Source: a phage. Taken from it: DNA of 64,000 nucleotides. This document shows positions 6,657 through 58,691 of this stretch, in pieces. The notes below the pieces were generated by a model, which was not told the origin of the DNA, did no database searches, and saw only the letters and a program-made list of their open reading frames with translations. A program made the position numbers and the translations under genes. The DNA lies in NCBI GenBank assembly GCA_025823825.1, contig GCA_025823825.1_4720.1; one strand, given 5' to 3'. Positions within the stretch are counted from its first letter, which is position 1; each line of letters begins with the position of its first letter.

Positions 6657-6688
6657 CCCTCCTCCTTCCCTGACGGGTTGGAGGAGGG
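6657..6688. terminator. conserved CCTCC/GGAGG hairpin element (family member 1)
   Basis: CCCTCCTCC-TTCCC-TGAC-GGGTT-GGAGGAGGG; flanked by CATAT on the 5' side and TTATG on the 3' side. Confidence 0.6.
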
Positions 6689-6702
6689 TTATGCCGTCAA
6701 GC

Positions 6703-6717
6703 AAAAAAAAAAAAAAA
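6703..6717. repeat. A15 homopolymer tract
   Basis: 15 consecutive A between the two hairpins; on the minus strand it is a U15 run, but it lies downstream of the second hairpin in minus-strand transcription, so it is not the U-tract of a canonical intrinsic terminator. Confidence 0.9.
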
Positions 6718-6722
6718 TGATA

Positions 6723-6755
6723 GTCACAGGCCCTCCAATGAAGGAGAGCCGTGAC
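6723..6755 (-). terminator. hairpin immediately after stop of 6763..7482
   Basis: GTCACAGGCCCTCC-AATGAA-GGAGAGCCGTGAC imperfect inverted repeat; the A15/T15 run is adjacent. Confidence 0.55.
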
Positions 6756-6762
6756 CGTCAGT

Positions 6763-7482
6763 TTAGGATGCGGATAATCTAGCGTACTTCTGTCGAATAT
6801 AGTTCTTACGGCGAACTTCGTCATCCTCGTCACGCCATTCGAGATAAGCAACGAAACGGCGTAACTGTGCCGCAGTCATCGTTGACGATCGGTCTTTTAC
6901 ATCTAGAACGACGTAACGAACGTCATCAACGCCGTCGCAACCAACATAACGGAATACCAAAAGACCGTTATCGTATTCAATGATGATAACTTCGAATCGT
7001 TTCTCGAACAAATAAAACAGTTCTGATTCAATGATCATCGGAACTACGCATTTATCATCATGATCGATGATTTTCATCATCACCCGTAACGCGCGAGGAG
7101 TATGACGAGCGAACTGACCGTCGAAACGTTGTTTCATCGTTTGTTCCACGTCGTCTGTTTTTGTTCCAGGCCAAGGACGCACTACAGATTTCGGTGGTGT
7201 AAGACGGCAGCGGTACGCTTGTATAAACAACAGAATATCAGCAACATTAGGAAATTCATCCTGGTCTTTGTATAGCTTACGGATAATATCCGGGATCGTA
7301 GTCAACAAATATTTCTTATCGCCTCCCACTTTCTCGAGATTAGCGATATGTCCTTCTACCACAGGCTGGTAAACAAAATTATACCAGTGGTGGTATTTTG
7401 CAACGTGTTGGTATTTCGGGATGAGATTAAGAACAGTATTTACTGCGCGTTTTAATGGGTTCATCAGAAGAATCCTTCTCAT
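6763..7482 (-). CDS. hypothetical protein (239 aa)
   Basis: Track ORF; ATG overlaps the stop of the upstream gene (ATGA); last gene of an operon behind the promoter-like motif at ~9.2 kb. Confidence 0.6.
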   Translation of the reverse strand: MRRILLMNPLKRAVNTVLNLIPKYQHVAKYHHWYNFVYQPVVEGHIANLEKVGGDKKYLLTTIPDIIRKLYKDQDEFPNVADILLFIQAYRCRLTPPKSVVRPWPGTKTDDVEQTMKQRFDGQFARHTPRALRVMMKIIDHDDKCVVPMIIESELFYLFEKRFEVIIIEYDNGLLVFRYVGCDGVDDVRYVVLDVKDRSSTMTAAQLRRFVAYLEWRDEDDEVRRKNYIRQKYARLSAS

Positions 7483-7913
7483 GTTTTAATATGCACATCG
7501 TCAATCCCCTCGGTAATCCAGCCGATGGGAAGGACAATCGTTGTTATCGTGTTATGTGTGTAAGGATTAAGAAAATGGAAATAGTAATTTGTGTTGGATT
7601 GTTCGATACGTAGGTCGAGCTGTGCGTCTTCAGGTAACCGTAACCAAGCACCGTACAGTTCATTAAACTTACGCTGAATTTTACCGGGGTTCATTGGAAC
7701 CCCACGACCACGTTGATGCAGCTGACGTAATGATTCAATCAAACACTCAGAGATACCCGTTGTCGTTCCGTTATCGCTCGTATCAACAACGATGAACTCT
7801 CGTGACCCACGACCAAGATAAAAACCAGCAACAAAAGCTGCAGCAACAAAAAATATCGTACCGATACCAATATACCAGTAGTAAGCATCCATAACGGCCT
7901 CACTTATACCCAA
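7479..7913 (-). CDS. membrane protein (144 aa)
   Basis: Track ORF; N-terminal hydrophobic helix YYWYIGIGTIFFVAAAFVAGFYLG. Confidence 0.6.
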   Translation of the reverse strand: MGISEAVMDAYYWYIGIGTIFFVAAAFVAGFYLGRGSREFIVVDTSDNGTTTGISECLIESLRQLHQRGRGVPMNPGKIQRKFNELYGAWLRLPEDAQLDLRIEQSNTNYYFHFLNPYTHNTITTIVLPIGWITEGIDDVHIKT

Positions 7914-8437
7914 TAGTCGGCAAGCGGTTTCACCTTATTAATGGGCAACTGTACTTTACCGATGTTCTCTACATCCGCATCCGCATAGAGAACAATTTTA
8001 TCATCGTCTCTTTCCCAACGAATAATGAATCGACCAGGAAGAAGATTACCCTGTTCAAGAGACGCAGTAACCTGTTGTGTTAAAACAGACAACCAAGCAG
8101 GCATCAGTGTTGCGATGTCTAAGTCATTTGACCACTCAGCGCGTTGCTCCACTGGACGTAACATACGTTCGACGGTGCGTTGAACTGTTGCGGTGATATA
8201 GCCTTTATCTTCGTCACTGATTGGATCAGGGCGAGACACAAAACGTTCAGCAGGCTTGTGGGTAATATACTCATGCAAATCGATGAGTGGTGTTGTCATA
8301 GTACTCGCTCCATCAGAATGTAATTGGGTAACCCGTAGGGTTGTCTGCATGCTATTCAGCAGCGCAAAAGCGCCATAAACAACAATGATACTAAGTACGA
8401 CCAAAACAGAAATCATTAATGTGTATTGCATTGCCAT
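7904..8437 (-). CDS. membrane protein (177 aa)
   Basis: Track ORF; N-terminal hydrophobic helix LMISVLVVLSIIVVYGAFALL. Confidence 0.6.
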   Translation of the reverse strand: MAMQYTLMISVLVVLSIIVVYGAFALLNSMQTTLRVTQLHSDGASTMTTPLIDLHEYITHKPAERFVSRPDPISDEDKGYITATVQRTVERMLRPVEQRAEWSNDLDIATLMPAWLSVLTQQVTASLEQGNLLPGRFIIRWERDDDKIVLYADADVENIGKVQLPINKVKPLADYWV

Positions 8438-9237: not shown

Positions 9238-9339
9238 AATGTTGGATTAAGTTAAATACTGCAACCGTAACTGATTTTATGGGCTTTTAGCCTAAACCAA
9301 TCATCTTCGGAATCATCATCTTTGAAACAGGAATCTATC

Positions 9340-10161
9340 ATGGAAAAAGTATTTGTTTGTAAGTTGTTTACCAACGGCAATAGCCAACCAATGTATCTGA
9401 CCGATCCTGTTCTAGGTAATCGGAACAGTACCGTATTCAAAGAAGCTTTCGAATACGCTAAAAATAAAGCCGTGAGAACACTGACGTCTGATGACTGTAT
9501 CAACGGTATCACGTGGGCAGAGTTATTCGGTGATGCTGTTAGACACTTCGTTCAGGACGCAAGAAAACAGGAAATCAGTCTCACGACTATCGTTGTGCGC
9601 GAAAACGCAGAAATTTTATCAAACGTTTTGGTTGATTTTAATGACGTTTGCGTGTTTAATCCAGAGAACACGTTTGAACAATATCTTACTGCCCTGAACA
9701 ACCAGCTCGGTAAAGATATTCATCCCGAATTCGCCAAGTTAACGTATCAAGTGCTTTTTAACGACGTCGATCCAAACACAAAGATCAACACCAGCTTATC
9801 GCCCCTGGTAAAGAAATACGGATCGGTTCTTGCTACGGCAACACCCACCACCGATGGCGGTTACGATATCGAATTGGATGGTCCATTAAAAGAACAAGAG
9901 CCTACTGGGGTTCGGGCGGTACATCACAACCTCGTCGTTAAATCTGATGGATGCGATGAACATTACGCTATGATGAACGATGAAAACAATTACCGTTTAA
10001 GTCAAGCGATTGGTGTTCTACGCTATACCGAACCCACTGTTGTAGACGATTATACATCGACAACAACACACACCACATGTTTCATTTTCATCTACCCCAA
10101 TGAAAGTGTGTACATTACTGACTGCTACGGCAACACTGTAGATAGCTTACGTCGTTACTAA
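9340..10161 (+). CDS. hypothetical protein (273 aa)
   Basis: Track ORF 9322..10161 trimmed to the first ATG (MEKVFV...); followed by a terminator. Confidence 0.6.
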   Translation: MEKVFVCKLFTNGNSQPMYLTDPVLGNRNSTVFKEAFEYAKNKAVRTLTSDDCINGITWAELFGDAVRHFVQDARKQEISLTTIVVRENAEILSNVLVDFNDVCVFNPENTFEQYLTALNNQLGKDIHPEFAKLTYQVLFNDVDPNTKINTSLSPLVKKYGSVLATATPTTDGGYDIELDGPLKEQEPTGVRAVHHNLVVKSDGCDEHYAMMNDENNYRLSQAIGVLRYTEPTVVDDYTSTTTHTTCFIFIYPNESVYITDCYGNTVDSLRRY

Positions 10162-10167
10162 TCGTCG

Positions 10168-10194
10168 AGCCTGTCCTTCGGGGCAGGCTTTTAT
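10168..10194 (+). terminator. intrinsic terminator
   Basis: AGCCTGTCC-TTCG-GGGCAGGCT followed by TTTTAT, directly after the stop at 10161. Confidence 0.7.
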
Positions 10195-10269
10195 GCTGTT
10201 AAATATCAGGAATAAGAATTAACAAAATAGGAAAATGGTGTGTATATAACACAAAGGAGGGAGATGATT

Positions 10270-10495: not shown

Positions 10496-10804
10496 ATGAG
10501 CAATTTGAACGTTGAATTTACTTCAACAACGCCTGTCATGAATGGTGTTGGCACTGAAACCAAAATCGTATTAGAACCCATTCCAGGGTTACGTGATCTC
10601 GGTGATTTTTATCAACTGATGCCGCGTATACGGAAGGCCTTAAACAGCATCGATCTTGATTCCAATAAAGATTTCCAACACGATACAGAAAATACTGATC
10701 ATGTATTGCTACCATCGGGGATCGCAAAATTCACCTACACGCAAACATTGAAAGCCTCCGATGGTGAAATCCGTCGTTTTATCGTTGAAGTAGAAAGCGC
10801 ATAA
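10496..10804 (+). CDS. hypothetical protein (102 aa)
   Basis: Track ORF, followed by a conserved hairpin. Confidence 0.55.
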   Translation: MSNLNVEFTSTTPVMNGVGTETKIVLEPIPGLRDLGDFYQLMPRIRKALNSIDLDSNKDFQHDTENTDHVLLPSGIAKFTYTQTLKASDGEIRRFIVEVESA

Positions 10805-10808
10805 AAAC

Positions 10809-10840
10809 CATCCTCCCAACCCGTAAGGGAAGGGAGGATG
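10809..10840. terminator. conserved CCTCC/GGAGG hairpin element (family member 2)
   Basis: CATCCTCCC-AACCC-GTAA-GGGAA-GGGAGGATG between convergent genes; flanks CATAA ... ATATG. Confidence 0.6.
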
Positions 10841-10857
10841 AAATATGCCGTTAAACG

Positions 10858-11487
10858 TTATTCAACAAACCCTGCGTTCAACAGATTGTCGTAAACACGA
10901 TTAGCGACATCAACAGGAGAATGTGTGTTACTGGTGTCTATACACAACGTTTTCGCGTCGCCGAGATAGTCCATAAAATCCATGTAACGATAACGTCGTT
11001 TATTGAATGTCGCTTCATCGATGTTATCAAACATCTGATGTTTAGCGTGACGAACACGGAACCGTCTTAAATACGTAGGATAGTCGATATCCAGATAAAC
11101 ATAGTAAGACGGCATGATAATCGACGGTAGGTTCGGCAACAATGCGTCAAACAACTTAACGTTGGCATCATTAACCTGATAAACATACGTCGAAGCAATC
11201 GAACGATCGCTAAGCACAGTCTTCCCTTCGTTAAGGGCTGGATGAATCACCTTGTTGAAGAGATGATTGCGTTGCGACATCATCGCCAATAGCTCAGTTT
11301 CTGGATCGAATCTGTTCGTTGGCGTCTGATCTTCCAGGATAAGTTTACGAATGGCTTCTCCGTAGAGTGTACCGCCGGGTTCGCGTACGACACAAACATT
11401 GTTTAAACGACTGTGTAAAGACGAGATAACCGAACTCTTTCCTGAATAATCCAGGCCTTCAATAACGATATATTTATTACGAGACAT
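10858..11487 (-). CDS. tmk: thymidylate (dTMP) kinase
   Basis: N-terminal P-loop KYIVIEGLDYSGKSS matches the Tmk signature (E. coli IVIEGLEGAGKTT); size about 210 aa; start placed at the ATG with GGAG upstream. Confidence 0.8.
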   Translation of the reverse strand: MSRNKYIVIEGLDYSGKSSVISSLHSRLNNVCVVREPGGTLYGEAIRKLILEDQTPTNRFDPETELLAMMSQRNHLFNKVIHPALNEGKTVLSDRSIASTYVYQVNDANVKLFDALLPNLPSIIMPSYYVYLDIDYPTYLRRFRVRHAKHQMFDNIDEATFNKRRYRYMDFMDYLGDAKTLCIDTSNTHSPVDVANRVYDNLLNAGFVE

Positions 11488-11503
11488 TCCCCGCTCCAAT
11501 TAA

Positions 11504-16776: not shown

Positions 16777-17865
16777 ATGAGCGATCTGGCAACAGACAAT
16801 CGCACAAAAGGGAGTCAGCTAGCTCCAGACAACAACGTAAGCGTTTTCCGTATCTTTGCCTTGGGTACTGTTGCTGCCGACTTTTCCAATAAAAGTCTGG
16901 AGGAAGATCCTAACCAAACGCTGGAGGTCTTTCTTGATGAGATGATGTCGGGCGCTGATGGGAAAGTTGAAGCGGCGGGAAGCGTTAAAGAAGTCAGTGC
17001 AACAGACGCTCAAGGGAACAGCTATACGGCGAAAGCGGCAACAACAACCAGCGTACAGTGTTACTGGTTACCCTTCGGCAGTAACCGGATGACAGCACCT
17101 AACTTGAGGAAAGGTCAGCGTGTGGTGGTCTGGCGTACCGCCGATGAAGAACAACTCTACTGGCAGCCCAAAGGAGGGGATAGCGAGCTGATGACCATGG
17201 AATCGGTTATCCTCACCGTCAGCGCACGTCCTAGCGCTAAGAAGGACCGTAAATCGATTTCAACGGAAGACTGCTATTACCTAATGGTTGATACCTTCCT
17301 CAAGAAAGCGGTTATCGGTACCAGCGCACAGCTTGGTGAAGTTACCCAAGTTTACATGGAACTTAATCTGGACGAGGGTTACCTACAGGTTGCGGACAGC
17401 GTCCATCAAAATCTGCTGTTACTCCATTTCGTTGAACATATGCTGCGTTATCAAAACCAGGACGACAGCATCATCGACGTGACAAAAAAGAACATCACAT
17501 TCCAGTGCGAGGATACGCTCAAAGCAATTGCTAAGAACGATATCCGAATGAAAGCAAAAAATATTTATACGGAATGTGAGAACTTCGAGCGTACCAGCAA
17601 AACAGAAAGCGTTACGAGTCAGAATGTTTCTTTGAAGTGTGATCGTTACACCGCGCAAGTATCAGGACAGACCACGTTTAAATGTCCGAATACGGTATTC
17701 ACTGGAGCTGTAAGCTTCACAGGTGAAGACGGAAACACGATGACGTTGAATGGGAACTTCATACACGTCGCAGGCTCTTGGCGTTCACCAACCGGAACAA
17801 ACGTATACACCCACGATCACGGTGGTGTAGATCGTGGCAGCGGTCGTACAGACCCATTCCAATAA
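16777..17865 (+). CDS. hypothetical protein (362 aa) with C-terminal HxH motif
   Basis: AGGAGA Shine-Dalgarno; C-terminus ...NVYTHDHGGVDRGSGRTDPFQ; followed by an A11 run and a conserved hairpin. Confidence 0.6.
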   Translation: MSDLATDNRTKGSQLAPDNNVSVFRIFALGTVAADFSNKSLEEDPNQTLEVFLDEMMSGADGKVEAAGSVKEVSATDAQGNSYTAKAATTTSVQCYWLPFGSNRMTAPNLRKGQRVVVWRTADEEQLYWQPKGGDSELMTMESVILTVSARPSAKKDRKSISTEDCYYLMVDTFLKKAVIGTSAQLGEVTQVYMELNLDEGYLQVADSVHQNLLLLHFVEHMLRYQNQDDSIIDVTKKNITFQCEDTLKAIAKNDIRMKAKNIYTECENFERTSKTESVTSQNVSLKCDRYTAQVSGQTTFKCPNTVFTGAVSFTGEDGNTMTLNGNFIHVAGSWRSPTGTNVYTHDHGGVDRGSGRTDPFQ

Positions 17866-17888
17866 AAAAAAAAAGAAATGCTATACAA

Positions 17889-17923
17889 CCTCCTTCCCCG
17901 GCCTTGACGGCTAGGGAAGGAGG
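17889..17923. terminator. conserved CCTCC/GGAGG hairpin element (family member 3)
   Basis: CCTCCTTCCCC...GGGAAGGAGG; on the minus strand it is followed by a T11 run, so it is an intrinsic terminator for the gene 17939..18328. Confidence 0.65.
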
Positions 17924-17938
17924 ATTATAGTTTATTTA

Positions 17939-18328
17939 TTAACGCGTTGCATTCTGGATGATTTCTTTTCCGATCTTAACCAAAGCGGGTATCTGTACAG
18001 CGGTTGCGCCTCGATGACGAAACGCGGTCGTTAACGCGGTATCGATACTCACCGCACGTCCGTGAAGACGATCGAAATAGACTTGAGTGATTGCAGCAGC
18101 ATAATCCTTTCGCTGTTTCTTGGTTTGGTTCAACAGCGTCGCACTATGACTAACGATGAAGTAAGCGATTAAGAAGAACGCCGCTGAACGCGAACCGGGT
18201 AGAAAACCTTGTCGCTTAGGAAGCATCTCACAATCGCGAACAGAATTATCGTTCGCGAGCTCTTCCATGTCAACACAGCATAATTTTGCATAGGTGTGGA
18301 GATAGTGGGTAAAAGTTGAATTTAACAT
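17939..18328 (-). CDS. hypothetical protein (129 aa)
   Basis: Track ORF; GAGGA Shine-Dalgarno. Confidence 0.55.
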   Translation of the reverse strand: MLNSTFTHYLHTYAKLCCVDMEELANDNSVRDCEMLPKRQGFLPGSRSAAFFLIAYFIVSHSATLLNQTKKQRKDYAAAITQVYFDRLHGRAVSIDTALTTAFRHRGATAVQIPALVKIGKEIIQNATR

Positions 18329-21771: not shown

Positions 21772-22464
21772 GGATTTGTGTTACAGAAGGGTTTTGTTGT
21801 TTTTAAGAAGGGATGGATTTAGAAGAGGTGTTTCAAGGAAGGTAAACGAGGATAGGTATTTTGATTTAAGTAAGTAAGATGTTATCTGTATTTGTTAAAA
21901 GTGTATTGTTTATCTTAGGTTATGTCTTATTGTTTAATCGTTTAATATTTTTATCTACGTAGGTTTAACTCTATCTTGTTTGTATATTTAAATTAATTTA
22001 AAAGTAAGTCAATAAGCGTATCTTCAAAACAATGGATAACATGTGTTTACTACCTTAACGGTAACACATGTCATCTGTGCATTACACTCCGTTACATGCT
22101 GGTTAAATCGGATAACTCAAAAAAACATTTGTGATACTCTTCTTCACGTTGTTCATCAGAGTATCTCGTCTATACTCATTGCATTCGTATACGACATAAC
22201 CGTTATACGCTAACGCTACGCTTATAGCTTGATAACTCTAAGGATAAAAACATAAACTCGCTTCGCTCGTTTAGTTTTTCTTTTTCTTAGAGTTATCCTG
22301 TTGCTCGTCTCTAAAGGACTTCGCTCCTCCCCCGTCCCCCGAAGGGGCCGAGGTCGTGGAAATTTTACTTTCCAAATACATTTACAACATCTGTAAACTT
22401 TTACTCCAGGTACTTAATCTTATCATTAGAAATTATAAAAGAGAAGAATAAACATAAACATAAA

Positions 22465-34452: not shown

Positions 34453-34461
34453 AATATGCTG

Positions 34462-43522: not shown

Positions 43523-43557
43523 CCTTCTCCCCAACCCGATGAGGGAAGGGGAGAAGG
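43523..43557. terminator. conserved CCTCC/GGAGG hairpin element (family member 6)
   Basis: CCTTCTCCCC-AACCC-GATGA-GGGAA-GGGGAGAAGG, preceded on the plus strand by an A10-12 run; flanks CATAG ... CTATG. Confidence 0.65.
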
Positions 43558-43574
43558 GCTATGCGCTATTTAAT

Positions 43575-43850
43575 TTATTTCGAGGTTAACCACGATTCAA
43601 TTATGGTGAGTTTGCTTCTCAGTACGCGCCAACTAGGGTGTGGTGGGATCACAGCGCCATTGTCGATTACGGTTAGCTGAACCTGGTACTTCTGTTGCAT
43701 ACGCGCTACCGTGTCGCTTATCGAGAGGAAAAGCTGGTAACGTTCATATGCCGTCAGTTCACTGTCCTGTTGAACTGCGTTGGCTGCTAACGTAATTTCG
43801 CGTAAGTCCTTTGCATCCACAGAGACGGTAATGAGTTTATATTGACTCAT
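43575..43850 (-). CDS. hypothetical protein (91 aa)
   Basis: Track ORF. Confidence 0.5.
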   Translation of the reverse strand: MSQYKLITVSVDAKDLREITLAANAVQQDSELTAYERYQLFLSISDTVARMQQKYQVQLTVIDNGAVIPPHPSWRVLRSKLTIIESWLTSK

Positions 43851-46504: not shown

Positions 46505-48301
46505 TCAATCGATTATGTCACGATCGTTAATTTCTACAATTTCTTCATCGAATCGACCGACGTCTTTCTTCAATCCTGCATTGGTTGCTGCAACGTCATT
46601 TGCAATTTGTGGGGTAATGATTAACCGACCACGTTCGTCGATAGGTGCGTACATACTGAACTTCTGACGTCCGGTTGGTTCGGAGTGTGGAAGATTCAGA
46701 TAGCTTGCACAGAACGGGATGGAACCACTAACCAAACGACTCTCGTCAGCCAATGCAGCACCGCCTGCGTTTTGGCTCTGGAGAACAACATGCGTGCTCA
46801 CTTTGAACAGCATGCAATCACCAGGTGACTGAATCGATGTTGCCACTTTCTCACGTTTATCACGATTGCTCTGGATATTGAGAATCGCTTCCGTTGCAAC
46901 TTGATTTCGCAACGCCTTCTGTACATCGCGATTGGTCATCTCTTTACGGTTGTTCTGTCGTTTACCACGTTCTGTGGTTTTAAGATGGAACCCCAGTTTA
47001 AAGATGCTCTTACGCACATCCTCCATGACATATTCCAACACCATCAATTCCTTACCGAACATCGTCGTGGTATCAACACGACTCATTTCGATAGTGACAT
47101 TGTCAATCAGATACGCCATAAATTCGTAGAAGTCGTCGCAAGGAATATTTTCCTGTTTGAACTTCTTCTGCTGAATCTCGTCAACGTAAAGATCGAGACT
47201 GTCGATGTGGTGGTTTACATCACGCAACAAACGTGCATCCGCGTTGTTGTTATTAAAGATAATCAAACCGAGTAATGTACGCCAATGGTCTGGCGCATTC
47301 GCGAACTCCTCAACCGGATAGTCTTCCGGAAAACGATCGTAATAACGGTCGATGAGATACAAGAATGCACCGACAAGGCCAAGAACAATACGTTCCGTGC
47401 CTCCACGTCTTACAGCAATTTGAATATCAGGATGTTTGTAACGTACAGCGCTAGCGCTACGGCTTTTACCGCTTTTGCTGATACTAAAACCTTTAGGAAT
47501 AACCCCCATGGTGCGATAGATTACCCATTGGTCACGCGGAAAATCACGTTCAGCAAGGTTCCGTCCGGTTACGGCTTCGACACCTGCAAAACGTCGGAAA
47601 CACTCACCCACACCGTACTTCGCAAAGAGATAGTGACCCAGTGTGGTTACGCTGGTGTGGTTGATGTTGTCACCGTTCACTTTACTTTGTTTGGTAAGAT
47701 GATAGATTTGTGACCAGGGTAATGACAGGTAATGACGATAATCGATACCGGTCGGTGTATCATTGCTCAGGAACTGATACGGCGTACGTTTAACCGTGAT
47801 TTTATCACGCGGAAGCATGATGAACGCCATGTCTTTCGTGTAACTGATTACGGGGTCAGCGAGTACCGCACTGAGAATGAAGTTCGCACCACGTAGACGC
47901 ATTTTACCACCCTGACCTACCGCGGGTAATAGGAGAGGATGTCGGATAATGCAGTAGTCCTTTCCTGGTTCACGACGGTCACCTGATTCCATCGCGCCGT
48001 ACCAGCGGAATTCCAGCATCACCATAAACACATCGGAAGGCGCAAGGTCGAAGGTCAGCTTACCGCTATCCTTCCCTTTGGTTTTCTTTCCTCCGCTTAA
48101 GTAGTGGAACTGTTCGCGGGCCATACAACGACGCAGGCCATGATACACCAGATCCTTAGGTAAACTATCTTTGCTGTTCCGCCAAAGACGATCAACATAG
48201 GACTCAACATCTTGCATCTTATCGACGACGATGTTGCGTGCTATCTTCTCGTTCATCTTCGGTGCAAGCTCAGCGACAGCTTTGCAGAATCTAGGATCCA
48301 T
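46505..48301 (-). CDS. hypothetical protein (598 aa)
   Basis: Track ORF starts at GTG 48304; the ATG at 48301 has AAGGAG 6 nt upstream. Confidence 0.6.
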   Translation of the reverse strand: MDPRFCKAVAELAPKMNEKIARNIVVDKMQDVESYVDRLWRNSKDSLPKDLVYHGLRRCMAREQFHYLSGGKKTKGKDSGKLTFDLAPSDVFMVMLEFRWYGAMESGDRREPGKDYCIIRHPLLLPAVGQGGKMRLRGANFILSAVLADPVISYTKDMAFIMLPRDKITVKRTPYQFLSNDTPTGIDYRHYLSLPWSQIYHLTKQSKVNGDNINHTSVTTLGHYLFAKYGVGECFRRFAGVEAVTGRNLAERDFPRDQWVIYRTMGVIPKGFSISKSGKSRSASAVRYKHPDIQIAVRRGGTERIVLGLVGAFLYLIDRYYDRFPEDYPVEEFANAPDHWRTLLGLIIFNNNNADARLLRDVNHHIDSLDLYVDEIQQKKFKQENIPCDDFYEFMAYLIDNVTIEMSRVDTTTMFGKELMVLEYVMEDVRKSIFKLGFHLKTTERGKRQNNRKEMTNRDVQKALRNQVATEAILNIQSNRDKREKVATSIQSPGDCMLFKVSTHVVLQSQNAGGAALADESRLVSGSIPFCASYLNLPHSEPTGRQKFSMYAPIDERGRLIITPQIANDVAATNAGLKKDVGRFDEEIVEINDRDIID

Positions 48302-48340
48302 CACACACTCCTTTCAGAAAGTTGCTTAAGCAGATTAAAG

Positions 48341-49952: not shown

Positions 49953-49986
49953 TTTTTTCTATTCGCAACGATAAACGGCATAGAAA

Positions 49987-50016
49987 CCTCCCCCAACCCT
50001 TACGGGCTGAGGGAGG
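49987..50016. terminator. conserved CCTCC/GGAGG hairpin element (family member 7)
   Basis: CCTCCCCC-AACCC-TTACGGGCTGA-GGGAGG, downstream of the 740-aa gene; on the minus strand it is followed by TTTCTATGCCGTTTATCG. Confidence 0.55.
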
Positions 50017-50115
50017 CTGACTTATGTATCACGGTGCCGGATGAATGTCCGGTGCAATGAAACCATCCGCAACGTTGTCGTCAAGAATATCATCCAACGA
50101 AGCAGCTACGGTAGT

Positions 50116-52338
50116 TCAGTTAGTCTGAACCGGCAGCTTGATGTTTTCGGTGTAGACCTTACGCAGGTTCACAACGTTAATCAGACCCAGCAGCGGGCAG
50201 TTGTTAACGAAGCGGCAGCGCGGCTGAACCATGGTTTCTTTAGAAACCTGACCGTTACGGGTAACCTGAGCAACAGATACCAGTTCCGGTACATACAGGA
50301 ACATACCGAAGGTCAGCGGATCCGGAGAACCCTGGATACCACGAGACAGGGTCACGAAGATCTTATCGCGCAGCATGACGTTCGGGTTATCTACAACCAC
50401 GAAGTTGAAGCTTACACCAACGGTACGGAAATCGCCATCGGTCTGCAGGAACTGCGGGATGTAGTTGTCAGTTGCTACTACGCAACGCGGTTTCTCATCA
50501 GCGTTGGAAGACAGCAGCTGCAGAGCTGGCTGATAACCAGACTCGGAGTACATGCGGTATGCCATCTCACGAATCACGTTCATGATCGCAGCAGACACTT
50601 CAGCACGACGTTCTGCAGTGGTGGTACCCTGAACAGATTTCTCCAGGTCCAGATTGATTTCTTCGAACCACGGACGGATCAGGTAACGACCGAAACCTTC
50701 GATCTGGATGTCACCGAACTGACGGAAGCGAGAGGTCGCAACCGCTTTCAGTGCGTCTTTGTAGCTGAACAGTTTCTCAACCATCAGGTTGTCGAAACGT
50801 GCGTTAGCAGCTTGGATCAGAACGTCCAGGTCAGCAGCGTTTTCTTCCCAATCCAGCGGACGAGGAATGGAGAACGGAGCCAGCAGGCCGATTGCGTAAC
50901 GTTCTTGCTTCATGTTGAAGTCAAGGTGCTTACCGCGCTCACGACGGTTGCTGTTGTTACGGCGGATACGCAGTTCGTAACCAACCAGTTTGAAGCTCAG
51001 GTCTTCAGCCAGTTGTTTGAACTCTTCGCTCTTACGCGGTTGTTCGATGTTGTCCTGATCAACCAGGCGATACAGTTCAGCGTTAGCGCCGTTAACACGC
51101 AGACCCGCTTTCTCTACGTTGGAAGAACCGTAAACTTCGATCGCCAGCTGAGCAGCGGATTTCGCATCGATGATGTCCTGCAGCGCTTCAGCTTTCGCAC
51201 CTTTAACGTCTTTGGTGTTCTCATCAACGAAGATGGAGTGGGTGTCGAACGCCAGGGTCATTTTGCGGAAGTCGCCTTCCAGGGATTTCTGGAAACCGTT
51301 GGTGATCAGACCAGATACGTCGAACGGTACGTAAGAGGTTTTGCTGTGCTTGGTAGATTTGATTTCTACCAGGATTTTGGTCAGCGTGATCTGGGCGTCC
51401 AGCGCGTCGGTGTTGTCGCTGTAACCGTTAGCCAGAATGCTGTCGTCTTCAGCGATACCGATCATGTCGATCAGTTTATCAACAGCCAGGTAAGACGTTT
51501 TATAAGTTACGCCTTTAATTTCGATGTCGCGCGGAGCAACGATCGTTTTATCAACGAAGTACTGCGCGTTGGCATCGTCAGCACGATAGATCGGATGCAG
51601 ATCGGTCACGTCGTTGGACAGAACGTCGTTGTACATGAACGCATCCAGCAGCGGACGACGTACCCAATCAGCCGGAGTACCGTCAGCGTTACGACGCAGG
51701 TGGTTGAACACCAGCGGGCGACGGAAAGATACGTCGTAACCGATCTGGTTCGGAGCCAGAACGATGGTGTTATACAGTTCGTTACCCATGCGGCTCAGAC
51801 GAGAAGCCTTCACGTTGAACACAACGGAGTACGGCATCATGTCACGCAGTTCTTTCTGGTCGTAGGACAGCTGAACCAGTTCTTCAGATTCGCAACCGCA
51901 GGAATCAGCAGCCATCATGACGAAGTTAGAGCTGTCAACTTCACGACCTGACGGAGTGGTGCTGATGTTCATGGAACGTGCTTGTTTAGCATATTCTACC
52001 GGGTTACCATGAGCCAGCATGATCAGTGCTGCTGCACGAGCCTGCTGTGCGTTCATGGTGAACAGCTGTTCTTCAATACGCTGCTTCTCTTCCGGAGTGG
52101 TGGTTTCGAAGCCCAGCATGGACAGAACCGGTTCTTCGGCTTTACGGATGTCGCTGCTGAAGCTCTTAACATCCATTTCGTTAACCAGTTTGTCCATGGA
52201 TTTGAAATCAACCTTAGAAGCAGATTCCATAGACAGGAAGGTGTTCTCCAGACCTTTGTCTGCTGGTTTGCTACCATTAGCGGTCAGGAACTGGCGAGTG
52301 GCCGCGACCTGTTGGCTAAGAAGGGTTTTATCATTCAT
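50116..52338 (-). CDS. putative major capsid protein (740 aa)
   Basis: The strongest codon optimisation in the window (CTG, CGT, GGT, ACC, GTT, TCT, CCG); AAGGA Shine-Dalgarno; terminator downstream; size is in the range I recall for phiKZ-type major capsid proteins. Assignment is by inference, without a homology search. Confidence 0.5.
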   Translation of the reverse strand: MNDKTLLSQQVAATRQFLTANGSKPADKGLENTFLSMESASKVDFKSMDKLVNEMDVKSFSSDIRKAEEPVLSMLGFETTTPEEKQRIEEQLFTMNAQQARAAALIMLAHGNPVEYAKQARSMNISTTPSGREVDSSNFVMMAADSCGCESEELVQLSYDQKELRDMMPYSVVFNVKASRLSRMGNELYNTIVLAPNQIGYDVSFRRPLVFNHLRRNADGTPADWVRRPLLDAFMYNDVLSNDVTDLHPIYRADDANAQYFVDKTIVAPRDIEIKGVTYKTSYLAVDKLIDMIGIAEDDSILANGYSDNTDALDAQITLTKILVEIKSTKHSKTSYVPFDVSGLITNGFQKSLEGDFRKMTLAFDTHSIFVDENTKDVKGAKAEALQDIIDAKSAAQLAIEVYGSSNVEKAGLRVNGANAELYRLVDQDNIEQPRKSEEFKQLAEDLSFKLVGYELRIRRNNSNRRERGKHLDFNMKQERYAIGLLAPFSIPRPLDWEENAADLDVLIQAANARFDNLMVEKLFSYKDALKAVATSRFRQFGDIQIEGFGRYLIRPWFEEINLDLEKSVQGTTTAERRAEVSAAIMNVIREMAYRMYSESGYQPALQLLSSNADEKPRCVVATDNYIPQFLQTDGDFRTVGVSFNFVVVDNPNVMLRDKIFVTLSRGIQGSPDPLTFGMFLYVPELVSVAQVTRNGQVSKETMVQPRCRFVNNCPLLGLINVVNLRKVYTENIKLPVQTN

Positions 52339-52487: not shown

Positions 52488-53108
52488 TCATAAACGACGC
52501 AGGCGATAATGGATGGAACGATTGGTGCAATATGAACGGAACAGCGGCAATTGCGCAACTTCCGCAAGACTCATATTAATTCGCAGGTGTTCAATAACGG
52601 CGCTGTAGTTATCAGCAATACGATCGCTCAATAACTCTTCTGCCAATAAAGGAAGACAATCGACAACAATCGCGATCACATCCTCATTAACATAACGCAC
52701 CCGAACACTCAACGGACGTTTGTCTGGGCTGTAAGTTGGATCCGCCAAACGTCGTTCAATATCACGCGGATAGCTCGTCAGTAAATGGTAATAACCATTG
52801 TCATAACGATTGATGTACTCGCACAGCACATCAACATTCTTCTCTGGCGGCAAACCTGTTTCGTCATAGTGATACGCAAACATACCACCAAGCAGGTTGT
52901 TAAGATGAACTGCAGGGTTCGCTTGTTCGTGTTCTTTCGTGATGAAGAAAGGCACGTTTTGAGCTGCGAAATAAAAACCTACATCATTGGGCGATAGTAT
53001 GCCGAAAAGACTTTTAGGATCTAATAACACCTGTAAGTCATCACGCGCATTTCGAATGATCGCGTGTTCTACCCAATTCGGAACGACGAGATATCGGAGT
53101 TCCTTCAT
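52488..53108 (-). CDS. hypothetical protein (206 aa)
   Basis: Track ORF, divergent from 53148..54758. Confidence 0.55.
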   Translation of the reverse strand: MKELRYLVVPNWVEHAIIRNARDDLQVLLDPKSLFGILSPNDVGFYFAAQNVPFFITKEHEQANPAVHLNNLLGGMFAYHYDETGLPPEKNVDVLCEYINRYDNGYYHLLTSYPRDIERRLADPTYSPDKRPLSVRVRYVNEDVIAIVVDCLPLLAEELLSDRIADNYSAVIEHLRINMSLAEVAQLPLFRSYCTNRSIHYRLRRL

Positions 53109-53147
53109 TATGATTACCTCTTTGCAAGTATCGAAAGGATTGAGTCG

Positions 53148-54758
53148 ATGGACCCAAAACAGATAGCCATTAAGATTATTACGTTACTGTTTCGTAATGC
53201 ACAATTGAACCATCCCGATCCCAGTACGATCGAACATGTTAAATCCGTCTTAGATAAAGTCGAACCCCCGAAAAACCATCTCGCTACAGACGTAGATAGA
53301 GAGGTTTTCAGCAACCTGATGAACACCATTCATTGGATGCTGGAACAACCGTTATCGGAACCTTTCGATAAACAACAGTTGTTACAAAGGATACGTTTAG
53401 ATTGCCTTGAACAAAGCAATCTTTACGAGATTCTTGCCGACGGACTGTACGATATCGAAGACGACGCTCATATCAGTAAGGTCTGTTCGCTCTATTACAA
53501 TGAATTACGTAATCTGATTACTCGTCGTCGTGTTTTCGAAACCTTTAGAAACACGTACATGGATATCAGTAACGGGCGACTTGGGGATAAAGAATTTTTC
53601 GATGCGATGGCGAATTTGAAATTATCGCTAGACAGTATCGAAATGGATACCGAAAATCCCGAAGAGATGTCGTGTATGATTGACGGCTTTATCGCTGACA
53701 GCGAAGACGATATCGAGAAAGTTGAACGTATGTTCGTCAAAGCGATGGAACGTAACAGTCCTGAAGGTGGATTTGTAACCGGCTGGCAAGGCTTTAATAA
53801 AATGTTGGGGTCGGTCGGTGTTTTACGTCGCGGTACCTTAGGACTGATTGGTGCAATGCAGCACCGGAACAAGTCAGGTGTGTTGTTAAAACTGTTCACG
53901 CATCTGGCATTGTACAATAAACCCCATTTCTTTTTTCCGGAGCGAGCAAAGAAAGCACTACTGATTCACTTGTCAACAGAAAACGAAGTAGAAGAAAACA
54001 CGCTTCAGATATACAAGAACATGCGAGAACAGGAAACAGGCGAATATGTCGATATTCGTAAGATTGACCCTCGCGAGGCATCACGTTATGTGTTGAAGGT
54101 GTTCAACGATGCGGGTTTCTCTGTTTGTATGCGTCGTGTTGATGGGATGAGTTATAAACAACTCGCTAATCTCATCGACCATTTCGAACGCATGGGTTAT
54201 GAAGTCATGGCGTTGTTCATTGACTATCTGAAAATGTTCTCATCGGAAGGGTTGGATAGAAATGGACCGACCGGCGCATGGCTCCAAGAACTCTTCAACA
54301 AAGTACGTAACCTCTGCAGCGTTAAACGTATTTTAGGTATGACCGTACACCAGCTGTCATCTGATGCGAAGATGCGTGCGCGTGATGGCAACGATGAAGA
54401 GTTCGTTGACCAAGTCGCGGGTTTAAGTTACTGGGATGGTTGTAAAGGGATTGACCGTGAGATTGACCTCGAAGTGATTGTTGATATCGTTAAGGAACCG
54501 GGCAAACGTCAAAGCTGGCAAGTCTTTGCGTTAGGGAAAGACCGTCAACCGGATAACGGCTCAACGAAACCTGAAGACAAACACTTCGCGATGCCATTCC
54601 AAACCATCGGGATGCTTCCTGATGATTACGGTAAGAAAGCAGTGTATTGCCGCAAGGTTGGCGGACAACCTGTCTCCGAGGGAGGTAAAGGTCCGTGGAA
54701 CAAGTTCGATGAAAACGCAGCACCGAGTAATGAATTACAATTTGACTTAGAATTTTAA
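53148..54758 (+). CDS. hypothetical protein (536 aa)
   Basis: Track ORF 53064..54758 trimmed to the ATG at 53148 (AAGGA 10 nt upstream) to remove overlap with the divergent gene. Confidence 0.6.
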   Translation: MDPKQIAIKIITLLFRNAQLNHPDPSTIEHVKSVLDKVEPPKNHLATDVDREVFSNLMNTIHWMLEQPLSEPFDKQQLLQRIRLDCLEQSNLYEILADGLYDIEDDAHISKVCSLYYNELRNLITRRRVFETFRNTYMDISNGRLGDKEFFDAMANLKLSLDSIEMDTENPEEMSCMIDGFIADSEDDIEKVERMFVKAMERNSPEGGFVTGWQGFNKMLGSVGVLRRGTLGLIGAMQHRNKSGVLLKLFTHLALYNKPHFFFPERAKKALLIHLSTENEVEENTLQIYKNMREQETGEYVDIRKIDPREASRYVLKVFNDAGFSVCMRRVDGMSYKQLANLIDHFERMGYEVMALFIDYLKMFSSEGLDRNGPTGAWLQELFNKVRNLCSVKRILGMTVHQLSSDAKMRARDGNDEEFVDQVAGLSYWDGCKGIDREIDLEVIVDIVKEPGKRQSWQVFALGKDRQPDNGSTKPEDKHFAMPFQTIGMLPDDYGKKAVYCRKVGGQPVSEGGKGPWNKFDENAAPSNELQFDLEF

Positions 54759-54781
54759 ACACAAAAAAAGATTGTACGGTT

Positions 54782-54813
54782 CCCTCCTCCAACCCGTAAG
54801 GGAAGGAGGAGGG
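54782..54813. terminator. conserved CCTCC/GGAGG hairpin element (family member 8)
   Basis: CCCTCCTCC-AACCC-GTAA-GGGAA-GGAGGAGGG between convergent genes; T7 run on the minus strand; GGGGTTATG on the 3' flank. Confidence 0.65.
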
Positions 54814-54829
54814 GTTATGACCGCTTTGA

Positions 54830-55156
54830 TTAACTTATTGTCGTGAATTCATTAGGTGAAAATTTCCAGCCGTTCTCAGTGAGAAGCGTGTTGAGTTTCG
54901 CTGCAACGATAAGCCATGCATGCATGGCCGTTACATCGTATTGGCGATTCACTCGACGTTGGTTTTCGATATTGATTTGCTCCTGTTCGGTGATGTTTGG
55001 ATAAAGTGCGATAGCGCTAGGTTTACCCAGCGCGCTAGTCATCACCGCCGTACATTCACTGATAATGTTGTTTAAGTGGTAGTTATACACCGTTCCACGC
55101 ATGACGCGATGACGGCATTCGATAATAGCGTCGTAAATGATTTCTCGAGTAATCAT
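54830..55156 (-). CDS. hypothetical protein (108 aa)
   Basis: Track ORF; last gene of the operon behind the promoter-like motif at 58.6 kb. Confidence 0.5.
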   Translation of the reverse strand: MITREIIYDAIIECRHRVMRGTVYNYHLNNIISECTAVMTSALGKPSAIALYPNITEQEQINIENQRRVNRQYDVTAMHAWLIVAAKLNTLLTENGWKFSPNEFTTIS

Positions 55157-56272: not shown

Positions 56273-56719
56273 TTAGAAATTATTGCCGAACTGGTTATGG
56301 TTATATGGTTGGTAGTGTCCGTAATTACCTGGGAAGCCACCATACGGCACAGGCTCCGGTTTAGGGATTTCCATGGTCGGATTTTTGGAATTGATTGCCA
56401 TCACGTAAATTGTTACGGGTGATACCGCGCGATTCATTTCGACGGCCACACGACGGATGTAGCCAACGTATGCTGTTATTGCAGGCATTAGCTTGTCCCC
56501 TTCGGTAGTTATAACGGTACCATCAGAAAGAATCTCGCGAACCGCGCACCATTTACCAAGATGAACGCCTTGCTGCGGCTTTATTCCAGTAGCGATAGAG
56601 AGATAGGTATCGTACGTCGTTTGATGATTCGGATGGCTATAGATAGATTCTGCTTTGGTTTCGTCTTTTCCTAAGTATTCGCCTTGCATGGGGGTAGGAG
56701 TTGATGAAGAATGTGGCAT
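56273..56719 (-). CDS. paralog-family protein, short member (148 aa)
   Basis: Shares HP..TTYD.YL.I, W..VREI..DGT and LAIDSKNP/MAINSKNP with the next two genes. Confidence 0.6.
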   Translation of the reverse strand: MPHSSSTPTPMQGEYLGKDETKAESIYSHPNHQTTYDTYLSIATGIKPQQGVHLGKWCAVREILSDGTVITTEGDKLMPAITAYVGYIRRVAVEMNRAVSPVTIYVMAINSKNPTMEIPKPEPVPYGGFPGNYGHYQPYNHNQFGNNF

Positions 56720-56830
56720 GTTCGATTCTCCTTCGAGTTGTTTGATCGATTGTTCAACTGGTACTGATTACGATTGGTTGATAACAGTAGAGCTACCGCT
56801 TAAAAACTCTACCGTTGTTTAGATACCGTA

Positions 56831-57691
56831 TTAGGATATACGGTGCATCGTCGGTGCGATTGGTCGTTGACCAAGGTAGAATGTATATCTCGGACGATTC
56901 TTCGGTGCCTGGTTTGGTTGAGGATTCTTCGAATCGATAGCTAACACATAGTACTGAAGTGTGGGGTTGAGTGTCGTCAGATAGTTTCTGATGAACTCCT
57001 TGTTTAAACTTTCAGTCGGGGTTAATACATGTCCGTTGATTGTAACGACGGTGCCGTCGGAACGTATTTCACGAACAATGCACCAGGCCCCCGCACCAAC
57101 ATCGGTAGGGATAGTCGTGCTGGGTGTGATGGTTAGATATTTATCGAAGAATTCGCAGCAAAGAGGATGCTTATAGACCGTTACGGTATCATCTCCTGGC
57201 GAGGTTCTCTCTTTTGTTACAAGATCCATTGCTGGTACGAAAGTGTTGATTTTGGCAACCTTATCGGCATCTTCGTTCGCTTCGATATAAATCTCTGCTT
57301 TACCGTACACGCTCTGAACTAAACGACGTAACTGTTCGTATGTTTTCGGTGAGGTTAGCTGCACCCGACTGAGCAGTTCATCGTACCAAGCTTCGAAGGT
57401 GCTTGTTGGTATCTTAACGTATGCCTTATTCCCGGTTTCATTTTCATCCCGGAAGATAATCGCAACGGTATCAGGCTCGTCAAGAGAGTCCAGGTAAACG
57501 ATGTGCTCGACCAACGCAGAAAATGTCTTACGTCCAATTCCCCCATAGTACGGGATTGCTGAATGAACCAGCCGCCAGTTACATGAAGTTTGGATATGAT
57601 CGAAGGCGTTGATCATGTTTTTACTATAACGAAAAATTTCAGTAAAATATTCTTTACGTTCTTTACTAAGACGTTTGTATATCTTGGTCAT
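56831..57691 (-). CDS. paralog-family protein (286 aa)
   Basis: C-terminal domain ...YKHPLCCEFFDKYLTITPS...WCIVREIRSDGTVVT...YVLAIDSKNP; N-terminus MTKIYKRL parallels MTDIYQKL in 57745..58545. Confidence 0.6.
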   Translation of the reverse strand: MTKIYKRLSKERKEYFTEIFRYSKNMINAFDHIQTSCNWRLVHSAIPYYGGIGRKTFSALVEHIVYLDSLDEPDTVAIIFRDENETGNKAYVKIPTSTFEAWYDELLSRVQLTSPKTYEQLRRLVQSVYGKAEIYIEANEDADKVAKINTFVPAMDLVTKERTSPGDDTVTVYKHPLCCEFFDKYLTITPSTTIPTDVGAGAWCIVREIRSDGTVVTINGHVLTPTESLNKEFIRNYLTTLNPTLQYYVLAIDSKNPQPNQAPKNRPRYTFYLGQRPIAPTMHRIS

Positions 57692-57744
57692 TTTTGTAGC
57701 TCCTCGATTAAAGTAAAGATGAACGCGATCATTTATTATCGCTT

Positions 57745-58545
57745 TTAGTTTTTACCATTCCCCCAGCTAGGTTCTTCGTAGAAATGATGCGGATAACCAG
57801 AGTAGGAACCCATGACACAAGAGGCCGTTTCTTTTCGTGAATCGATGACCAGCGCATAAAACTGTCTGAGGTTCGACAACATAGAGAAATAAGACGACAG
57901 CACTTTTTCGTTTAACGCATCGCACGGTAAGCAGGTGCGACCGCAAAACGTCACAATACGGCCATCAGGATAGATCTCACGAATCATTCGCCATTCACCG
58001 ATGTCGACCGGCGACGGTGTAGATGTACCGCCCGTTATTGTTAAATATCGGTCGTACGTAGTACGGCATTCAGGATGAACGTAAATCGGTTGGGCATCAA
58101 TACTATCGTTTTCTGTTTGATCTTTACTCACGTATACCTCAAGGTAGATTGTTGGTAACCCGGTTAGAACGCCAGTATCACGACGTTTTTTGGTAATCCG
58201 GGGACGGATATTATCGAGCACGCCTTCCAGTTTTTCTGCGACTTCGTCAGCCGGTAATATATACCCGTATGTTGGTTCTGGGTCATCATCGTGGCTAAAT
58301 AAGATACGACAGTCGTTTTTATTAAATTCTATATCTTCAGGTGGGAAGATGATGACGCGAACCGTATGGCGTTCTGCGATATAAAATCCTTCAGGCCCCT
58401 CAGTTTTGGTAAGTGTAAAGGACCAGGATGAATGATCTTCAAGTGACGTGCCTGCCAGGAAAAAGTCCGCCCGAATTGGTGCGTTCCATTTCGCGATCAT
58501 ATTGGCGTGACCAATAACGCCTAATTTTTGATAAATATCTGTCAT
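57745..58545 (-). CDS. paralog-family protein (266 aa), first gene of the operon
   Basis: C-terminal domain ...YVHPECRTTYDRYLTITGG...WRMIREIYPDGRIVT...YALVIDSRKE; the promoter-like motif lies about 60 nt upstream. Confidence 0.6.
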   Translation of the reverse strand: MTDIYQKLGVIGHANMIAKWNAPIRADFFLAGTSLEDHSSWSFTLTKTEGPEGFYIAERHTVRVIIFPPEDIEFNKNDCRILFSHDDDPEPTYGYILPADEVAEKLEGVLDNIRPRITKKRRDTGVLTGLPTIYLEVYVSKDQTENDSIDAQPIYVHPECRTTYDRYLTITGGTSTPSPVDIGEWRMIREIYPDGRIVTFCGRTCLPCDALNEKVLSSYFSMLSNLRQFYALVIDSRKETASCVMGSYSGYPHHFYEEPSWGNGKN

Positions 58546-58600
58546 GATTGTATCCTCGGTTATTAAGAGAAATTTACAGTGATAACAGTAACCGTTGTCA

Positions 58601-58625
58601 TCACCTTAGTAATATAGCCATGAAA
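58601..58625 (-). promoter_or_regulatory. promoter-like motif, copy 3 (TATATTAC core)
   Basis: Minus-strand reading TTTCATGGCTATATTACTAAGGTGA; differs from copy 1 at 2 of 25 positions. Confidence 0.55.
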
Positions 58626-58659
58626 TAAACTGGAGTAACGCGCTTAAGACAGCATAGAA

Positions 58660-58691
58660 CCCTCTCCCAACCCATAAGGGAAGGGAGAGGG
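58660..58691. terminator. conserved CCTCC/GGAGG hairpin element (family member 9)
   Basis: CCCTCTCCC-AACCC-ATAA-GGGAA-GGGAGAGGG just downstream of the stop of 58696..60063; CATAG on the 5' flank. Confidence 0.65.

Follow-up and report, generated by a model that had tools for sequence, protein, structure and literature searches.

What purpose do some ten GC-rich hairpins serve that are spread along a stretch of phage DNA of 64,000 nucleotides (GenBank assembly GCA_025823825.1, contig GCA_025823825.1_4720.1; the window in the following), many of them flanked by CATA on the 5' and TATG on the 3' side? With respect to the origin of the DNA, a 12-kb piece of the window shares 97.5% identity with Escherichia phage vB_EcoM_Goslar (Goslar), and six blocks of the whole window align with that genome at 93-98% identity. 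Positions 1-6717 of the window match the final part of the Goslar record, and everything beyond them matches its first 55 kb. Goslar, which infects E. coli, belongs to the nucleus-forming jumbo phages (Chimalliviridae). Its record contains phiKZ-like split RNA polymerase genes, and phages of the Goslar/phiKZ kind are transcribed by their own virion and non-virion polymerases (PMC4666361). As detailed below, the hairpins are most likely factor-independent transcription terminators of the phiKZ type that are read as RNA, serve the phage's own multisubunit RNA polymerases and act in both directions.

A preliminary description had placed hairpins at about 6657, 10809, 17889, 22465, 34421, 43523, 49987, 54782 and 58660 as well as a divergent copy at 24285, and had taken them for near-identical copies of one architecture. 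All ten were found at these positions. The arm motifs occur 9 and 11 times compared with 0.73 and 0.44 occurrences expected from shuffled sequences (observed counts reached in none of 100 shuffles), and each of the ten, folded with its flanks on both strands, yields -21 to -35 kcal/mol with z = -4.2 to -7.4, the sole exception to this z range being 49987 on the plus strand (z = -2.9). A covariance model (R1) built only from Goslar-clade copies, 21 of them distinct, identified eight true members in the window with 35-61 bits (6657, 10809, 22465, 34421, 43523, 49987, 54782 and 58660). The proposed common architecture applies to these eight, but neither to 17889 (17.6 bits), which represents another sub-family whose CCUCCUUCCC stem is paired throughout, nor to 24285 (14 bits), for which there is distant similarity only. 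Goslar itself contains 16 strong family members, and an exact-pattern scan of IMG/VR revealed the family in two further Goslar-like contigs of 237.5 kb and 183 kb, while Rfam 15 at gathering threshold gave no match across the whole window. Hairpins of -24 kcal/mol or below are intergenic in 30 of 33 cases, with only 7% of the Goslar genome being non-coding.

The family consensus, CCYTCYYCC-AA-CCC-N4-GGG-AA-GGRRGARGG, comprises a lower stem of 9 bp and an apical stem of three CCC/GGG pairs, separated by an internal loop of 2x2 nt that never varies (A.A in one strand and U.U in the complementary one); the apical stem is capped by a tetraloop that is most commonly GUAA and often GNRA. Among the 21 distinct copies, 98% of the stem cells are paired. 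A change from C-G to U-A on both sides is seen in five of twelve pairs (29 cells) without any G.U intermediate, and the covariation score was reached by none of 500 shuffles. Folding and a covariance model, which had been proposed as a check, accordingly establish that the stem positions co-vary. The 5' arm always consists of pyrimidines (C/U) and the 3' arm always of purines (G/A), a rule valid for transcripts of either strand because the element is a palindrome. The AACCC...GGGAA sequence and the AA.AA mismatch are invariant in all copies from four genomes. In Goslar, the AA version resides on the plus strand at a ratio of 14:2 (p = 0.004), and the U.U version, i.e., the one seen by minus-strand RNA, is more stable by about 2 kcal/mol.

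The hairpins had been described as sitting between convergent genes or at the end of operons, which is supported, as seven of the ten are found at convergent junctions and the other three after a minus-strand gene. All eight convergent junctions of the window are equipped with a hairpin of -24 kcal/mol or better, provided by five family members, 17889, 24285 and a further hairpin at 2012-2055. At a cutoff of -18 kcal/mol, hairpins are present at 5 of 40 '--' junctions (both genes on the minus strand) and at 1 of 7 divergent ones in the window, and none of its divergent junctions features a family member. A genome-wide search of Goslar located the family at 9 of 29 convergent, 7 of 181 '--', 0 of 30 divergent and 0 of 12 '++' junctions (Fisher p = 7e-6), i.e., the enrichment at gene ends holds and is concentrated at convergent junctions.

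The flank counts given earlier are exact. TATG is present within 10 nt on the 3' side in six of the ten elements (6657, 10809, 34421, 43523, 49987, 54782) and CATA on the 5' side in seven (6657, 10809, 22465, 34421, 43523, 49987, 58660), with a binomial p of about 2e-6 to 3e-6 for each count against a background of 5-8%. The palindrome of about 45 nt is also recovered, in that the predicted minimum-energy fold pairs CAUA with UAUG in 6657, 10809, 34421, 43523 and 49987. When intergenic hairpins were oriented by the strand whose gene ends upstream, TATG followed the hairpin on 45 of 66 strands with an upstream gene end vs. 12 of 44 strands without one (p = 3.5e-5, background 5-10%). TATG tracks the strand with the upstream gene end, and CATA on the 5' side is therefore the tail of the opposite strand; the palindrome is the two-way form of a hairpin followed by a tail, and the element is bidirectional. 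At '--' sites the motif mostly occurs only on the side that is downstream for minus-strand RNA (22465, 58660 and numerous Goslar sites of the GCATAAA-hairpin type). When the sequences are aligned on TATG, the tail reads (T)T-TATG-C-Y-G-T and then turns into T-rich sequence, with frequencies of T(.41) T(.61) TATG C(.59) Y(.79) G(.52) T(.46) in 54 Goslar instances and a purine frequency of 0.8-0.95 at positions -8 to -5 ahead of it. In the RNA sense, the strand that would be terminated consists of the hairpin and (U)UAUGCYGU. The same tail is attached to hairpins with unrelated stems at 2012-2055, 10167-10201 and 63958-63993.

Runs of U on the minus strand had been reported after several of the hairpins. 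Such runs do exist at 17889, 43523 and 54782, but they start 12-15 nt past the stem and not directly after it, and the T15 run at 6657 is part of a separate upstream hairpin instead of the family hairpin. A conventional scan for hairpins with T-runs (five or more T within 8 nt, beginning 0-2 nt past the stem) flagged none of the ten and did not reveal any overall enrichment (19 vs. 19.7 and 23 vs. 19.2). Because scans of this type miss all ten, just three of them (17889, 24285 and 34421) are annotated as putative terminators in the Goslar record.

Stability also differs between strands. When both strands were scanned, hairpins at '--' junctions were more stable on the transcribed strand (31 vs. 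9, median -2.05 kcal/mol, p = 7e-4), and no such strand bias was apparent at divergent junctions. In 49987, folding of the minus strand, unlike that of the plus strand, closes the internal loop with G.U and A-U pairs and yields a continuous stem of 15 bp. This asymmetry, including the G.U stem of 49987, is evidence that the hairpins act at the RNA level. Avoidance of G.U pairs in the bidirectional copies is as expected if folding is required of both transcripts.

The same combination of hairpin and tail has been mapped in other chimalliviruses. In phiKZ, ONT-cappable-seq located 133 termination sites, 61 of which share the motif BCCYCCCCHWWDGGGRRGGBYTTATKYYGT; where genes converge, there are six terminator regions that are bidirectional (PMC10914365; Putzeys 2024). 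In 201phi2-1, the same motif (motif A) is present in 59 terminators, with 15 bidirectional sites; eight terminators were cloned into an in vivo terminator trap between two reporters, and the authors report several of them as confirmed (PMC11512511). A descriptor consisting of pyrimidine arm, loop, purine arm, 0-4 nt and TAT[GT]YYG matches six times in the first 50 kb of phiKZ (0.1 expected), four times in the window (0.25 expected) and 21 times in Goslar (0.6 expected), and the Goslar-built covariance model detects about ten loci in phiKZ at E < 0.05, all of them 5-60 nt past annotated stop codons. The terminator of the phiKZ capsid gene reads CATAG-GCCCTCCC-TTCG-GGGAGGGC-TTTATGTTGT. On account of the shared motif, the family in the window is the Goslar-clade form of this published terminator class. 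The preliminary description rightly stated that conservation exceeds what a terminator needs, and this is a known property of chimallivirus terminators, as exemplified by the 61 phiKZ and 59 201phi2-1 sites with one motif.

Common to all three phages are a GC-rich hairpin in which the 5' arm is made up entirely of pyrimidines and the 3' arm entirely of purines (CCYCC.../...GGRGG), YTTAT(G/T)YYGT straight after the stem in place of a U-tract, dozens of almost identical copies in each genome, located at the 3' ends of genes and bidirectional between convergent genes, and a virus with two RNA polymerases of its own. In contrast to the single stem of 7-8 bp in phiKZ, the Goslar clade combines 9 bp, the 2x2 AA.AA (or UU.UU) loop, 3 bp of CCC/GGG and a tetraloop, and this bipartite stem with its conserved internal loop is a lineage-specific elaboration. 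Furthermore, the Goslar version is concentrated at convergent junctions with the tail placed symmetrically on both sides, and its transcript ends, unlike those of phiKZ, are predicted from sequence.

With regard to mechanism, the small apical hairpin (CCC-tetraloop-GGG) would form first in the nascent RNA and nucleate folding, upon which the all-purine 3' arm would zip onto the all-pyrimidine 5' arm to give 9 bp and the 2x2 AA.AA or UU.UU loop. The polymerase would then be left on a weak A/U hybrid (UUAU) with G-C-Y-G-U next, where it would pause and release the transcript, the short tail taking over the role that a long U-tract has in bacterial terminators. Since both strands of a hairpin with a C-rich 5' arm read alike, a tail on each side would stop both converging transcripts. 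The elemental pause consensus of multisubunit polymerases is reportedly G-10, Y-1, G+1 (work of Larson and of Vvedenskaya, both 2014), and the U-then-G step of the tail, with a G about 10 nt upstream, resembles it. Bidirectional Rho-independent terminators of bacteria, said to have been described by Ju, Li and Liu in Nat Microbiol in 2019 as A-tract / hairpin / U-tract, are similar in that a single palindromic hairpin between convergent genes has complementary flanks that can extend the stem and in that either strand reads a hairpin and a weak-hybrid tail. They differ from the Goslar-clade elements, whose tail is a specific sequence of 8-9 nt, UUAUGCYGU, without a U run and whose polymerase is presumed to be the phage's own.

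Several points weigh against the terminator interpretation. We infer termination at these sites in Goslar-like phages from homology of the signal, and the same holds for the responding polymerase (virion or non-virion), the precise position of release and the contribution of the internal loop. The terminator model does not explain why AACCC...GGGAA and the AA.AA mismatch are invariant. The phiKZ scores in the covariance model are weak (15-20 bits), because phiKZ stems are shorter. Near-identical copies, flipped orthologues and loop swapping show that recombination or gene conversion contributes to conservation, and not all of it need therefore be functional. The elements have no U-tract and escape conventional terminator scanning, and phiKZ 3' ends from ONT-cappable-seq alone cannot tell termination from exonuclease trimming to a stable hairpin (PMC10914365). 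These last two points would equally suit polymerases that read through, the RNA then being trimmed by a 3'-to-5' exonuclease back to the hairpin or cut nearby such that the upstream mRNA is stabilised, comparable to repetitive extragenic palindromic (REP) elements or the RNase III sites of T7. The high stability of the hairpins (-22 to -35 kcal/mol) and their position at gene 3' ends fit such protection or processing just as well. An exonuclease barrier, however, needs no conserved 3' sequence, yet (T)TATGCYGT is conserved and strand-coupled; polymerase collisions would be expected at each convergent junction if transcription did not stop there, and several of the eight 201phi2-1 terminators tested in vivo were reported as confirmed. 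Protection without termination is thus improbable as the principal function. Still less credit, and indeed very little, can be given to selfish or recombinogenic DNA palindromes similar to REP elements or miniature inverted-repeat transposable elements (MITEs), with a position that merely reflects tolerated insertion sites. Sixteen near-identical copies per genome, the lack of G.U pairs in bidirectional copies, orthologues that are flipped relative to their flanks in close strains (window 54780 vs. U2_L085, Goslar 134585 vs. U1_L058, and the apical part of window 17889 vs. Goslar 11186) and loops that swap within a shared pool (GTAA, GTCA, ATCA, AACA) agree with such an origin, flips and loop swaps suggesting strand-switch inversion or gene conversion among copies. 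Enterobacterial REP elements likewise are numerous imperfect palindromes of 35-45 nt that are extragenic at operon ends in either orientation and likely stabilise upstream mRNA as a by-product. The hallmark GTAG next to the palindrome was not found in the hairpin family, its flanks being CATA/TATG, and neither HUH-type transposases nor REP-associated tyrosine transposases (RAYTs) are annotated in the Goslar record, a statement based on annotation with proteins not scanned with hidden Markov models. Moreover, compensatory C-G to U-A changes keep the helix together with strict pyrimidine/purine arms, G.U pairs in unidirectional copies appear only on the transcribed strand, as befits an RNA-level signal, the strand-coupled tail also occurs in phiKZ on stems that are not homologous copies, and every orthologous site is occupied in four Goslar-clade genomes without clean presence/absence insertions. 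A REP or MITE nature was rejected as main identity for want of GTAG and an annotated transposase and in view of the RNA-level strand asymmetry; it is kept only as a contributor to the homogenisation of copies.

The preliminary description had also considered a promoter signal, and the tail indeed contains a known promoter core: promoters of the phiKZ non-virion polymerase require TATG as their core, with G as +1 (PMC4666361; Yakunina 2015), and it is the core beta-like subunit GP123, not a releasable sigma factor, that binds TATG of the non-template strand (PMC12809450). An open reading frame (ORF) of 599 amino acids in the window (46505..48304, minus strand) encodes a GP123 homologue (24% identity, E = 2e-57). 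The post-hairpin TATG could accordingly be a late-promoter core that allows re-initiation after each stop and generates antisense RNAs at convergent junctions, and at '--' sites the tail is located upstream of the next gene (about 105 nt for 58660 and about 195 nt for 49987). Most of the evidence speaks against such a combined terminator and promoter, which we consider very unlikely. The family is enriched at convergent junctions and absent from the 30 divergent junctions of Goslar, TATG faces the 3' end of the opposing gene at seven of ten sites, TATGs free of hairpins lack both a sense/antisense bias (53 vs. 50) and the CYGT extension, the fourth tail position in phiKZ terminators is G or T (PMC10914365), and the phiKZ promoter p119L has AT-rich, easily melted DNA upstream of TATG where a GC-rich palindrome is found here. 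A different link, speculative and with only a small chance of being correct, is that terminator tail and late-promoter core are the same signal for the same protein pocket. As GP123 is a core subunit rather than a releasable sigma factor, the elongating polymerase keeps its TATG pocket, which in the homologue could capture TATG in the bubble while the hairpin forms and so produce a sequence-specific pause that replaces the U-tract. Within the overall identity of 24%, three of seven pocket residues are identical (S144, S334, Q466), whereas N186, S330, N398 and S402 correspond to H, H, R and F in the homologue. If the idea were true, one tetranucleotide would mark starts as well as stops, with AT-rich DNA or a GC-rich hairpin deciding between them. 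The notion of paired Shine-Dalgarno sequences and ATG codons in both orientations had to be abandoned: the purine arm is held in a helix of -22 to -35 kcal/mol, ORFs beginning at the post-hairpin ATG are of random length (median 17 codons vs. 18 for random ATGs), and the G of TATG is preferred but not required (41 of 57), phiKZ having G or T there (PMC10914365). A site for a dedicated RNA-binding protein, also suggested earlier, is possible, and the apical AACCC-N4-GGGAA module with the AA.AA loop may be recognised by a protein, e.g., an anti-terminator, an mRNA-export or a stability factor. ChmC, the only chimallivirus RNA-binding protein studied by enhanced crosslinking and immunoprecipitation (eCLIP), was rejected as the binder, since eCLIP gave no motif and binding near start codons.

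The elements that we assign to the terminator class are compiled in Table 1.

Table 1. Putative terminator hairpins of the window. Paired energies refer to the two strands; bits are scores in the covariance model; a dot stands for no assigned strand.
Position	Direction	Hairpin	Context	Bits	Energy (kcal/mol)	Goslar record, remarks
2012..2055	.	same general class, other stem: CCCACCCTAC-TA-CCC-CGTTAA-GGG-CG-GTAGGGTGGG; 5' flank CATAAT	convergent junction 2011/2063	11.7	-27 to -28	annotation 232609-232644; absent from the preliminary description
6651..6693	both	AA-family, core 6657-6688; CATA 6651-6654, TATG 6690-6693; AA version on - strand	convergent 6018..6650(+) / 6763..7482(-)	60.9	-28.6/-29.0 (z = -5.4/-5.3)	
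10167..10201	+	unidirectional: GAGCCTGTCC-TTCG-GGGCAGGCTT then TTATGCTGT	after gene 9322..10161			instance at 3489; annotation 3508-3527
10799..10848	both	AA-family, core 10809-10840; paired flanks GCATA...TATGC	convergent 10496..10804(+) / 10858..11499(-)	52.8	-26.9/-30.6	
17880..17931	both	second sub-family: CCTCCTTCCC-CGGCC-TTGA-CGGCT-A-GGGAAGGAGG; flanks TATA, not TATG	convergent 16777..17865(+) / 17939..18328(-)	17.6	-31.4/-31.2	putative terminator 11186-11220; apical part inverted relative to Goslar
22453..22496	-	AA-family, core 22465-22496; tail on - strand only (UUUAUGUUUAUG = CATAAACATAAA on +)	'--' junction, 3' of - strand gene ending 22508	55.9	-24.5 (-)	
24278..24327	.	divergent hairpin, TTATA tails	between + gene homologous to Goslar_00023 (~23537..24079) and 24381..25016(-)	14.1	-32.5 (+) / -24.3 (-)	putative terminator 17603-17637
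34416..34458	both	AA-family, core 34421-34452; CATA 34416-34419, TATG 34455-34458	convergent 33130..34410(+) / 34462..35367(-)	59.8	-26.0/-31.4	putative terminator 27746-27777
43514..43563	both	AA-family, core 43523-43557; 10-bp lower stem, 5-nt loop	convergent 40580..43489(+) / 43575..43850(-)	34.8	-31.9/-35.0	
49978..50027	-	degenerate AA-family, core 49987-50016; tail UUUCUAUGCCGU on - strand	99 nt 3' of major-capsid-like gene 50116..52338(-)	43	-31.3 (-) vs -21.4 (+)	
54777..54823	both	AA-family, core 54782-54813; + strand TTATG 54815-54819; - strand without TATG, U7 run 12 nt past stem	convergent 53064..54758(+) / 54830..55156(-)	55.2	-30.0/-30.3	
58652..58691	-	AA-family, core 58660-58691; tail on - strand only (UUCUAUGCUGUC)	3' of - strand gene 58696..60063	60.6	-26.6 (-)	descriptor match
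63958..63993	.	GCATAAA-GCCCACCCC-GAA-GGGCGGGC-TGTTTATGC; CATA...TATG flanks, different stem	3' of - strand gene(s) past window end			annotation 55080-55101

Some additional observations concern the surroundings of individual elements. Right after the stop codon of 6763..7482, a second hairpin (6722-6760) is followed after 5 nt by T15 on the minus strand (A15 on the plus strand, 6700-6714); it comes close to a classical U-tract terminator and forms a tandem with the family hairpin 6657. Both ends of the Goslar GenBank record share an overlap of 54 nt (window 6664-6717) and position 1 of the record is located inside hairpin 6657, so that the start of the deposited genome is arbitrary and cuts a terminator in two. 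Compared with Goslar, which has 41 nt there, the window contains an insertion of 2.2 kb at 56305-58541 with the ORFs 56831..57691, 57745..58545 and part of 56273..56719, the right edge of which is about 120 nt away from 58660. The left flank of terminator 58660 is present twice in the related contig U2, each time joined to a different right flank, which suggests that gene cassettes are exchanged next to terminators.

The exact-pattern scan of IMG/VR also matched some 70 other contigs (L007-L103, mostly AT-rich marine viral sequences), each with one CCCCC-AA-CCC-N4-GGG-AA-GGGGG that forms a hairpin plus U7 on the reverse strand. A subset (L015, L032, L039 and L043) has the flank GCATAAAAA, giving the tail TTTTTATGC on the other strand. 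As members of a wider family these contigs were rejected, since they share no proteins with Goslar and carry classical U-tract terminators on the opposite strand; the occurrence of the pattern in contigs unrelated to Goslar implies that the bipartite shape with tandem mismatch recurs independently.

As to the remainder of the window, positions 27504-28939, 12205-12734 and 21228-21573 are too diverged from Goslar for BLASTN alignment with the surrounding DNA being 93-98% identical. The largest of these segments (27504-28939) lies inside a gene for 865 amino acids (27205..29802), and they may represent host-range or mosaic regions. Matches to sigma-70-like promoters are depleted in window 40001-60000 (14 observed vs. 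30.3 +/- 4.8 in shuffles), consistent with transcription independent of the host polymerase. Between two minus-strand genes, an AT-rich stretch of about 800 nt (21665-22465) has no ORF above 56 amino acids and no Rfam match, includes a C-rich hairpin at about 22325-22350 and has an equivalent gap in Goslar at 14971-15826; it could hold promoters or a non-coding RNA.

Taken together, the proposed role as terminator agrees with position, strand-coupled 3' tail, RNA-level asymmetry and identity of the motif with mapped phiKZ terminators. The hairpin family is a real but largely ordinary finding, as the terminator class has already been described and mapped in phiKZ and 201phi2-1. It extends the signal of hairpin and TTATG from Pseudomonas phages to a chimallivirus of E. 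coli and suggests that this terminator signal is an old, polymerase-specific trait of the family and not an adaptation to the host. For Goslar-like phages it provides a rule for annotating transcription units where standard finders miss most terminators (three of ten annotated) and compact bidirectional insulators for engineering. The overlap of the terminator tail with the promoter core TATG, together with a core subunit that reads TATG, poses a testable question on how the polymerases of these phages stop.

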